The position numbers and the translations under genes are program-made. From Escherichia coli (GTDB lineage: Bacteria; Pseudomonadota; Gammaproteobacteria; Enterobacterales; Enterobacteriaceae): a stretch of 64,000 nucleotides of DNA. The notes beneath the pieces are model-generated. The model saw only the letters and a list, made by a program, of their open reading frames with translations. It was not told where the DNA came from and ran no database searches. The stretch is taken from the NCBI RefSeq assembly GCF_011045215.1, contig NZ_CP049201.1; one strand, given 5' to 3'. Shown here piece after piece: positions 6,454-6,998 of this stretch. Position 1 is the stretch's first letter, and each line of letters begins with the position of its first letter.

Positions 6454-6642
6454 GTGTCTGATATAGAGTCACTGGTTAAAGCATTAGGCGGAGAAATTAA
6501 GGAAGGAAGAGGTTCGCGTTGTAAGTTCATACTAAATATGAGCGTTGCGTGTTTCCATCGGCCTCATCCGTCGCCAGATACCGATAACGGCGCTGTAGAA
6601 AGCGTGCGTGACTGGTTACTAAGTATAGGGGTAAAACCATGA
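6454..6642 (+). CDS. HicA-like toxin candidate (small mRNA-interferase-like protein)
   Basis: 62-aa ORF with GTG start; resembles HicA-family toxins (GxGS...KF...HRPHP). 4-bp ATGA overlap with the downstream HicB-like gene. Start codon uncertain. Confidence 0.5.
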   Translation: MSDIESLVKALGGEIKEGRGSRCKFILNMSVACFHRPHPSPDTDNGAVESVRDWLLSIGVKP

Positions 6643-6998
6643 TCAAACTGAAGACGCCAAACTCTATGGAGATTGCCGGGCAGCCTGCTGTTATCACTTA
6701 CGTGCCAGAACTGAATGCATTTCGTGGCAAATTCCTGGGCTTGTCAGGTTATTGTGATTTTGTCTCTGACAGCATTCAGGGGCTGCAAAAAGAAGGGGAA
6801 CTTTCCCTGCTAGAGTATCTTGAGGATTGTAAAGCTGCGGGTATTGAGCCGTATGCGCGTACAGAAAAGATTAAGACCTTTACGTTACGCTATCCAGAAT
6901 CGCTGAGTGAACGCCTTAATAATGCGGCTGCGCAGCAACAAGTCTCTGTTAATACCTATATTATTGAAACACTGAATGAGCGTTTGAATCATTTATAA
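6639..6998 (+). CDS. HicB-like antitoxin candidate with C-terminal ribbon-helix-helix-type DNA-binding tail
   Basis: 119-aa ORF; C-terminal segment (PESLSERLNNAAAQQQVSVNTYIIETL) is typical of HicB-family antitoxin DNA-binding ends; translationally coupled to the upstream small ORF. Confidence 0.55.
   Translation: MIKLKTPNSMEIAGQPAVITYVPELNAFRGKFLGLSGYCDFVSDSIQGLQKEGELSLLEYLEDCKAAGIEPYARTEKIKTFTLRYPESLSERLNNAAAQQQVSVNTYIIETLNERLNHL

Follow-up and report, generated by a model that had tools for sequence, protein, structure and literature searches.

Does the small GTG-started gene that precedes a hicB-like gene in this stretch of E. coli DNA encode a working HicA toxin, and what does it mean that its product reads GSRCKF at the place where the catalytic histidine of HicA is expected? 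The window, by which we mean the whole stretch that was analysed (64,000 nucleotides), had been described in an initial annotation as carrying a candidate toxin-antitoxin pair made up of a 62-codon and a 119-codon open reading frame (ORF). The ORF sizes and coordinates, the GTG and the 4-bp hicA/hicB overlap (ATGA at 6639-6642) are all present in the sequence as described there, and the proposed toxin-then-antitoxin hicA-hicB module agrees with the Pfam, PHROG and HicB Foldseek matches. The gene call for the toxin has to be corrected, as the 62-codon GTG ORF is part of a frameshifted hicA pseudogene, which is also how RefSeq treats the allele. We consider, with a probability of roughly 0.9, that the locus (Table 1) is a chromosomal type II hicA-hicB operon of Gerdes Class 4 in which the toxin gene is dead. 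It sits on the E. coli chromosome between yhhJ and an accessory sugar-utilisation island. The upstream neighbours of hicAB are rbbA and yhhJ, and a class II aldolase gene lies downstream, convergent with hicB.

Table 1. Features of the hicAB locus, in coordinates of the window
Feature	Coordinates	Strand	Details
Sigma-70-like promoter of hicAB (putative)	6307..6334	+	-35 TTGACT 6307-6312, 16-nt spacer, -10 TACTAT 6329-6334
Putative HicB operator	6308..6357	+	four direct copies of TGANNTCATA, at 6308, 6321, 6335 and 6348
hicA pseudogene	6368..6642	+	275 nt, against 276 in O157:H7; Trp30 codon TGG shortened by one G
hicA 5' fragment (32-codon ORF)	6368..6466	+	native codons 1-29, three out-of-frame codons (C-L-I), TAG; out of frame with the 62-codon ORF and running across its GTG
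hicA 3' fragment (62-codon ORF)	6454..6642	+	GTG start; native residues 31-91, entire Pfam HicA domain
hicB (119-codon ORF)	6639..6998	+	
Intrinsic-terminator-like hairpin and T-run	7001..7041	+	hairpin 7001-7035, between the convergent hicB and aldolase genes

The comparison with O157:H7 explains the odd structure of the toxin gene. Native hicA begins with the ATG at 6368 and runs for 91 codons, and O157:H7 has it intact (WP_001259385.1); in O157:H7 strain E32511, a 276-nt CDS labelled 'type II toxin-antitoxin system HicA family toxin' is followed by a 360-nt HicB CDS. In a three-way alignment, O157:H7 reads AAG TGG TCT where both the window and strain PapM-32-1 read AAG TG- TCT, and this is the sole length difference. 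The TG remnant of the Trp30 codon is found at 6455-6456, and the native frame stops at 6464-6466, so that translation from the ATG at 6368 would end after 32 codons. The 32-codon ORF, previously regarded as a peculiarity of the start region, is actually the 5' half of hicA and the key to the locus, and the 62-codon ORF that had been taken for the toxin gene is the 3' part of the same 91-codon gene. Once the deletion is repaired, both ORFs join into one 91-aa protein. The GTG at 6454 combines the last base of the Lys29 codon with what is left of the Trp30 codon, and without the 1-bp deletion it would not be in frame. The initial annotation had suggested that the toxin is attenuated or inactive, or that it represents a variant subfamily. 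The toxin copy in the window is indeed most likely inactive, and it does belong to a variant subfamily, but the GSR motif does not appear to be to blame, as the inactivity is likely caused by the frameshift in the Trp30 codon.

It could be argued that the 3' fragment is a truncated but functional toxin, translated from the GTG at 6454 either directly or by termination-reinitiation, attenuated and still paired with HicB. The fragment has approximately the size of a canonical HicA and covers the whole Pfam HicA domain; the 62-aa product alone matches PF07927 (HicA_toxin) with an i-E of 5e-8 over residues 2-51, compared to 3.7e-9 over residues 30-80 for the repaired 91-aa protein. Pairing with the anti-Shine-Dalgarno sequence of 16S rRNA upstream of the GTG (-5.1 kcal/mol, which ranks in the top 16% among all of the window's start triplets) is close to that upstream of the native ATG at 6368 (-5.9 kcal/mol). 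The 32-codon ORF overlaps the GTG and its TAG is only about 10 nt 3' of it, so some reinitiation is possible, and hicB has been retained. Against this, the Shine-Dalgarno-like site is poorly spaced, as it ends just 3 to 4 nt from the GTG, and the missing part is unlikely to be dispensable, as the 29 N-terminal residues and W30 are conserved over more than 1000 cluster representatives. The allele is also rare, and the fragment carries a non-conservative K74N change that is absent from other carriers. This change, caused by a C instead of an A at 6588, is private to the window: the eight other deletion carriers that were examined all keep the A. Residue 74 itself is conserved, with K or R in 140 of the 148 cluster representatives. 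The change is consistent with drift after inactivation, even if a single change proves nothing. Taken together, we regard a functional 62-aa toxin as improbable, and the fragment is presumably non-functional.

A full-length HicA could also be restored if the ribosome shifts frame at the lesion, or if the deletion is simply a sequencing error. The sole point in favor of this is that two overlapping frames jointly encode a complete homologue. Programmed frameshifting would require a -1 shift at ATC AAG TGT, a sequence that does not fit the X XXY YYZ pattern of slippery sites, and hicA of O157:H7 is a single uninterrupted frame, most sampled genomes being one base longer than the window at this place. 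As the slippery site is absent and the frame of the relatives is uninterrupted, programmed frameshifting was ruled out. A sequencing error was ruled out as well, since nine complete assemblies, independent of one another and different at other sites, have the identical deletion. Restoration of HicA by either route has next to no chance of being correct.

The distribution of the allele was determined in complete genomes. By megablast, 2,075 of 5,426 complete genomes of E. coli have the segment from 6290 to 7050 on their chromosome. A probe of 58 nt that spans the deletion matches 1,222 genomes, of which nine are identical to the window; most of the other listed matches have 98.3% identity and span 59 nt, which is one base more than the probe. 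The deletion allele is thus carried by only 9 of the approximately 2075 genomes with the locus, and the nine come from a baboon, a pig, pigeons (two), cattle, a human, beef, a frog and a bear. We inspected seven deletion carriers (PapM-32-1, LHM10-1, PT62, XJ5.2, UTME-7, ET201, and wlxctx60), and in all seven RefSeq labels the gene 'HicA family toxin, frameshifted' next to an intact hicB; in PapM-32-1 the labelled feature is likewise 275 nt long. As many as five synonymous differences in hicB separate individual deletion carriers; therefore, they do not represent a single clone that was sequenced repeatedly, and the deletion cannot be an assembly artefact.

The Trp30 deletion is not the only lesion in this gene. 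In the 042-type haplotype, which is present in 788 genomes, codon 2 of hicA is a TAA stop codon. PGAP still calls a 76-aa CDS in this haplotype, with CTG as the annotated start. In six complete genomes the frame is instead shifted within the G-run of the Gly49-Ser50 codons, and the protein cluster of this allele is listed for 588 contigs. The protein database contains additional E. coli HicA variants that are truncated or fused. In at least about 800 of the approximately 2,075 carriers (about 39%), hicA is visibly disrupted and the adjoining hicB is intact, a figure that counts genomes and not independent inactivations. The antitoxin gene behaves differently from its partner. All 11 hicB alleles that were compared have the intact 119 codons, and 10 of these 11 adjoin a disrupted hicA; the variable codons among them comprise six synonymous and one non-synonymous. 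Lesions that affect only hicA and leave hicB intact are expected if unopposed HicA is harmful, and the hicA-specific decay may be taken as an indirect hint, from sequence comparison, that the toxin is harmful. Asymmetric decay of the toxin gene is common for chromosomal toxin-antitoxin loci, and orphan antitoxins are abundant in E. coli (PMC10790755).

The family assignment rests on several kinds of matches. The HMMER check proposed in the initial annotation gave a match to PF07927 for the HicA product (5e-8) and to PF05534 for the HicB product (3.5e-15), in line with its remark that the small protein resembles HicA. The repaired HicA matches phrog_8887, annotated 'toxin', at 7.4e-27, and HicB matches phrog_9151, 'HicB-like antitoxin', at 1.7e-12 over residues 8-118; therefore, phages carry the system too. 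NCBIfam has no model that matches either half of hicA or the repaired HicA, and a phmmer search of the PDB with the single repaired HicA sequence gave nothing at E <= 10. For the intact HicA, the AF2 model (pLDDT 94.5, pTM 0.85) has helices at 2-6 and 10-19, followed by a helix at 30-39, strands at 43-46, 51-56 and 59-64, and a helix at 74-86. The predicted alpha-beta-beta-beta-alpha arrangement at 30-86 is the dsRBD-like fold of HicA. Target-normalised TM scores in Foldseek were 0.67 for 6g26_E, 0.66 for 1whz and 0.63 for 6hpb_A, with E-values of 0.6 to 2.4, which are non-significant for such a small domain. In PADLOC-DB, a collection for anti-phage defence, no family matched HicA or HicB at E <= 0.01, and an Rfam search of the whole window gave zero matches.

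The hicB gene is intact. Relative to the common allele, its product carries R58L, a change that is shared with PapM-32-1. Pfam HicB (PF05534) matches residues 60-112 of the 119-aa protein with an i-E of 3.5e-15, and the only NCBIfam match is a sub-threshold one to BrnA. In the AF2 model (pLDDT 86.4), strands at 9-12, 15-22, 27-32 and 40-43 and a helix at 46-67 are followed by two C-terminal helices. Both the model and Foldseek indicate that the N-terminal domain has the partial RNase-H-like fold of HicB proteins: the matches include HicB of Burkholderia pseudomallei (6g26_B, probability 1.00), 6u0i_B (probability 0.98), HicB3 of Yersinia pestis (4p78_A, probability 0.99, target-normalised TM score of 0.58 over 64 columns) and also E. 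coli HicB3. The C terminus is of the ribbon-helix-helix (RHH) type, with Foldseek matches to Arc (1bdv_B, probability 0.99, rmsd 1.0) and AtaR (6gts_C, probability 0.99); the Pfam Arc and CopG matches are weak, and phmmer finds the Arc repressor at E 0.26.

Upstream of hicA, a consensus scan found a putative sigma-70-like promoter with 9 of 12 consensus matches, 34 nt 5' of the hicA ATG. The TGANNTCATA copies, spaced 13 to 14 bp apart, cover its -35 element, spacer and -10 element and the 5' untranslated region, and a degenerate fifth copy, ACATGTCATG, at about 6360-6369 overlaps the hicA start codon. Four of the five matches to TGANNTCATA in the whole 64-kb window lie inside these 50 bp, with 1.28 expected on both strands. 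Imperfect inverted arms are also found in this repeat family, and the promoter of E. coli 042 is shorter by exactly one repeat unit of 14 bp. Repeats over the promoter are the usual layout for the operator of an RHH antitoxin. HicB presumably binds the TGANNTCATA repeats, which would make them its operator. Downstream of hicB, the RNA of the terminator-like hairpin folds at -20.2 kcal/mol (z = -4.9), and 0 of 200 shuffled sequences folded as well; the consensus scan did not report the terminator-like site at 7001..7041.

These elements suggest how the operon would work. In the intact form, such as that of O157:H7, the sigma-70-like promoter under the four TGANNTCATA repeats would drive a bicistronic mRNA. 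Intact HicA would, by homology, be an RNA-directed toxin, presumably with RNase activity, that is neutralised by the N-terminal domain of HicB. In the window, hicB has its own Shine-Dalgarno-like site (-6.5 kcal/mol) as well as an intact ORF, and its probable role now is that of an orphan antitoxin and autorepressor.

The arginine that had been noticed in GSRCKF is real, as profile and structure-chain alignments place Arg51 of the repaired protein where the catalytic histidine is expected. The family profile aligns 'rGSR' with 'RGSH' of the solved HicA 9svk_A, weakly (E 0.094), and the histidine of 9svk_A aligns with the catalytic residue of B. pseudomallei HicA, His24, at which the deposited chains 4c26 and 6g26 carry an Ala. 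In the AF2 model, Arg51 opens beta2. HicA toxins have a conserved glycine in the beta1-beta2 turn and a conserved histidine at the start of beta2 (PMC6159526; PMC11594946), and this histidine is essential in the HicAs of Y. pestis, B. pseudomallei and Streptococcus pneumoniae (PMC11594946; PMC6159526). The turn glycine is present here, G49 being invariant in the family alignment, and the conserved catalytic histidine of the GSH motif is replaced by Arg51 in the window. The sequence comparison indicates homology to HicA, which does not by itself establish that the catalytic mechanism is the same.

To see how far this substitution extends, the repaired HicA was compared with its relatives. A word-indexed search gave 221 of these, 26 of which built the family profile, and the profile recovered 2,454 representatives of 50% identity clusters at E <= 1e-3 and 1,013 at E <= 1e-10. 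Among the 148 best cluster representatives, position 51 is R in 143 and His in 1. Conservation is just as high at G49 and S50 (145 of 148 each), H64 (146 of 148) and P66 and H67 (144 of 148 each), and it extends into the N-terminal part with W30 (142 of 148), P23 (137 of 148), L16 (121 of 148) and F20 (120 of 148). As read from the alignment, the signature of the clade is an N-terminal TL..IF..P......W extension, GSR and a nearly invariant HxPHP. GSR is conserved across the clade as its ancestral state; therefore, it is no evidence of attenuation in this strain, and a strain-specific inactivating mutation to GSR was ruled out, as Arg51 is conserved throughout the clade. Three sets of distant loci keep the order HicA-then-HicB. 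A Serratia chromosome and an NCBI assembly whose protein cluster is named Azospirillum sp. (together with an identical ENA contig) also have the 4-bp overlap, and metagenomic contigs L007/L008 keep the hicA-hicB order with a 7-bp gap.

Two interpretations of the clade were considered. Possibly, the whole clade is catalytically dead and the pair is only a DNA- or RNA-binding regulator, in which case the frameshift in the window would be irrelevant. The histidine of beta2 is essential in the characterised HicAs (PMC11594946; PMC6159526), Arg takes its place in 143 of 148 representatives, and the literature holds no experimental report on a clade member that we could find. However, G49, S50, R51, H64, P66 and H67 are nearly invariant among proteins of at most 50% identity, which indicates a selected active surface, pairing with HicB is strict in distant taxa, and the recurrent lesions in hicA (788 genomes with the TAA, 9 with the Trp30 deletion, 6 with the Gly49 frameshift and other truncations) leave hicB intact throughout. 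We therefore consider it unlikely that the clade is made up of inactive pseudo-toxins. Alternatively, members of the clade may be active RNA-directed toxins in which the canonical beta2 histidine is gone and H64, or H67 of the PHP motif, serves instead, with Arg51 having a role in substrate binding or in the transition state. In the AF2 model, H64 is at the end of beta3, the strand adjoining beta2. An hhalign comparison of the family with B. pseudomallei HicA covers only the C-terminal 18 columns, at a probability of 10.8% and with the GSR/GSH register outside them, and it pairs RPH67P with VPHP; therefore, H64 has no His counterpart in B. pseudomallei HicA. We hold this proposal of a relocated histidine tentatively, at somewhat less than even odds. 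If it is true, the clade would be a mechanistically distinct branch of HicA, which concerns the family and not the dead copy in the window, and the repeated inactivation of hicA alone in E. coli would be a population-level sign that toxins of this clade are toxic.

For the window itself, the finding matters little: this is a known kind of system that has undergone routine decay, and public annotation already records the frameshifted allele. The general point is that chromosomal toxin genes of toxin-antitoxin systems decay while the antitoxins persist. The question worth passing on is the mode of action of the clade without histidine. A large HicA clade that lacks the hallmark catalytic residue and is apparently uncharacterised offers the HicAB field a cheap and well-defined question. 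Our literature search found no experimental report on a GSR-type HicA. A single paper names hicAB together with yhhJ, and it is unrelated; an expression study of hicA/hicB in O157:H7 cites only the K-12 hicAB literature and shows no sign of addressing the present locus.

Among the known systems, the closest are other alleles of the same locus. RefSeq relatives have 99.2 to 99.7% DNA identity to the window over 761 bases, and PapM-32-1, the closest genome (99.7%), differs from it by one base between 6368 and 6998. The O157:H7 pair (WP_001259385.1 and HicB WP_000593555.1) resembles the window in its site downstream of yhhJ, its promoter repeats and its hicB; it differs by the extra G and thus an intact 91-codon hicA, and K74N is found only in the window. 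Gerdes (2024) defines Class 4 hicAB loci by having hicA first and a HicB with a C-terminal RHH domain (PMC10865869), and the locus conforms to this, as hicA is upstream of and overlaps a hicB of the RHH type. A Class 4 pair from Klebsiella variicola in Table S1 of that paper (PIA10432.1 and PIA10431.1) has a HicA that is 79% identical to the repaired HicA (PMC10865869). It shares with the repaired pair the gene order, the -4 overlap, a 91-aa HicA with GSRCKF and FHRPHP and a 119-aa RHH HicB, whereas in the window hicA is a pseudogene. Many other HicAs of the FHRPHP type occur in Classes 3 and 4 of Gerdes, and the Class 4 HicAs split into two clusters; the main text of the paper mentions neither histidine nor arginine, and the difference between GSH and GSR is not discussed there (PMC10865869). 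When compared with the characterised HicABs of E. coli K-12 (6HPB), B. pseudomallei (6G26/4C26), Y. pestis (HicA3B3, 4P78) and S. pneumoniae (HicBA, 5YRZ), the system shares the predicted toxin fold, the Gly-Ser in the beta1-beta2 turn, the PHP after beta3 and the N-terminal domain of HicB. The RHH domain of HicB is shared with the HicBs of B. pseudomallei, Y. pestis and S. pneumoniae, whereas K-12 HicB has a helix-turn-helix instead (PMC11594946). What sets the GSR clade apart from these characterised HicAs is the arginine in place of the beta2 histidine, an extra conserved histidine three residues before the PHP, and a conserved N-terminal extension of about 29 residues.

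Disruption of hicA is not confined to the frameshift in the Trp30 codon that the window shares with its closest genome, PapM-32-1. In the allele of the E. coli 042 type (L003:2501-2860, equivalent to window 6290-6660), which is carried by 788 complete genomes, codon 2 of hicA is TAA, and a 14-bp deletion has taken out the -10 element and exactly one copy of TGANNTCATA, the putative operator repeat. PGAP calls an intact 76-aa toxin in this allele, with an annotated start that reads CTG in the sequence, and this call may be an over-call. In a third disrupted allele (L015:801-1095), which encodes the 55-aa protein P0094, the reading frame shifts within the G-run of codons Gly49-Ser50. 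This allele is present in six complete genomes, and the protein cluster of P0094 is found on 588 contigs.

Across the promoter and the opening ~150 nt of hicA, the O157:H7 locus, which has an intact hicA, shows many differences from the 042 locus; the two are identical from hicA codon ~52 across the entire hicB. This pattern points to a mosaic, or a recombination breakpoint, within hicA. The Gly49-Ser50 frameshift allele combines an O157-like 5' end with a 042-like middle, which suggests that it is a recombinant haplotype.

Two non-synonymous changes were found in the hicA pseudogene and hicB of the window. HicA K74N (6588) occurs in the window alone, and HicB R58L (6811) is common to the window and PapM-32-1 only; position 58 of HicB differs from homologue to homologue.

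Several database homologues of the window's HicA (P0052, P0055, P0058, and P0077; hit H92) carry the name "hexulose-6-phosphate synthase," which looks like a propagated mis-annotation. In the representative search, the profile of the GSR-type HicA clade, which has Arg51 in place of the catalytic His, matched two long proteins at their far C-terminal ends, P0354 (2052 aa; residues 1968-2051) and P0302 (337 aa; residues 251-336), either of which may be a fusion or an artefact of gene calling. Among the other representatives of this clade, many are 100-134 aa long with additional N-terminal sequence, possibly as a result of mis-called starts. A scan of the 64-kb window (1-64000) against Rfam returned no family at the gathering threshold.

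The hicAB genes are absent from the yhhJ-side chromosomal site in ~3,350 of the 5,426 complete E. coli genomes. In E. coli 042, nikR lies immediately after hicB; relative to this reference, the window has an insertion of ~5.85 kb between the two genes, and hicAB is therefore at the border of a variable accessory segment.

Features within the hicB-nikR insertion (window 7010-12857)
Feature	Coordinates
Class II aldolase	
HPr-like protein	
FGGY-family kinase	
Additional ORF	9700-11088
Additional ORF	11911-12666
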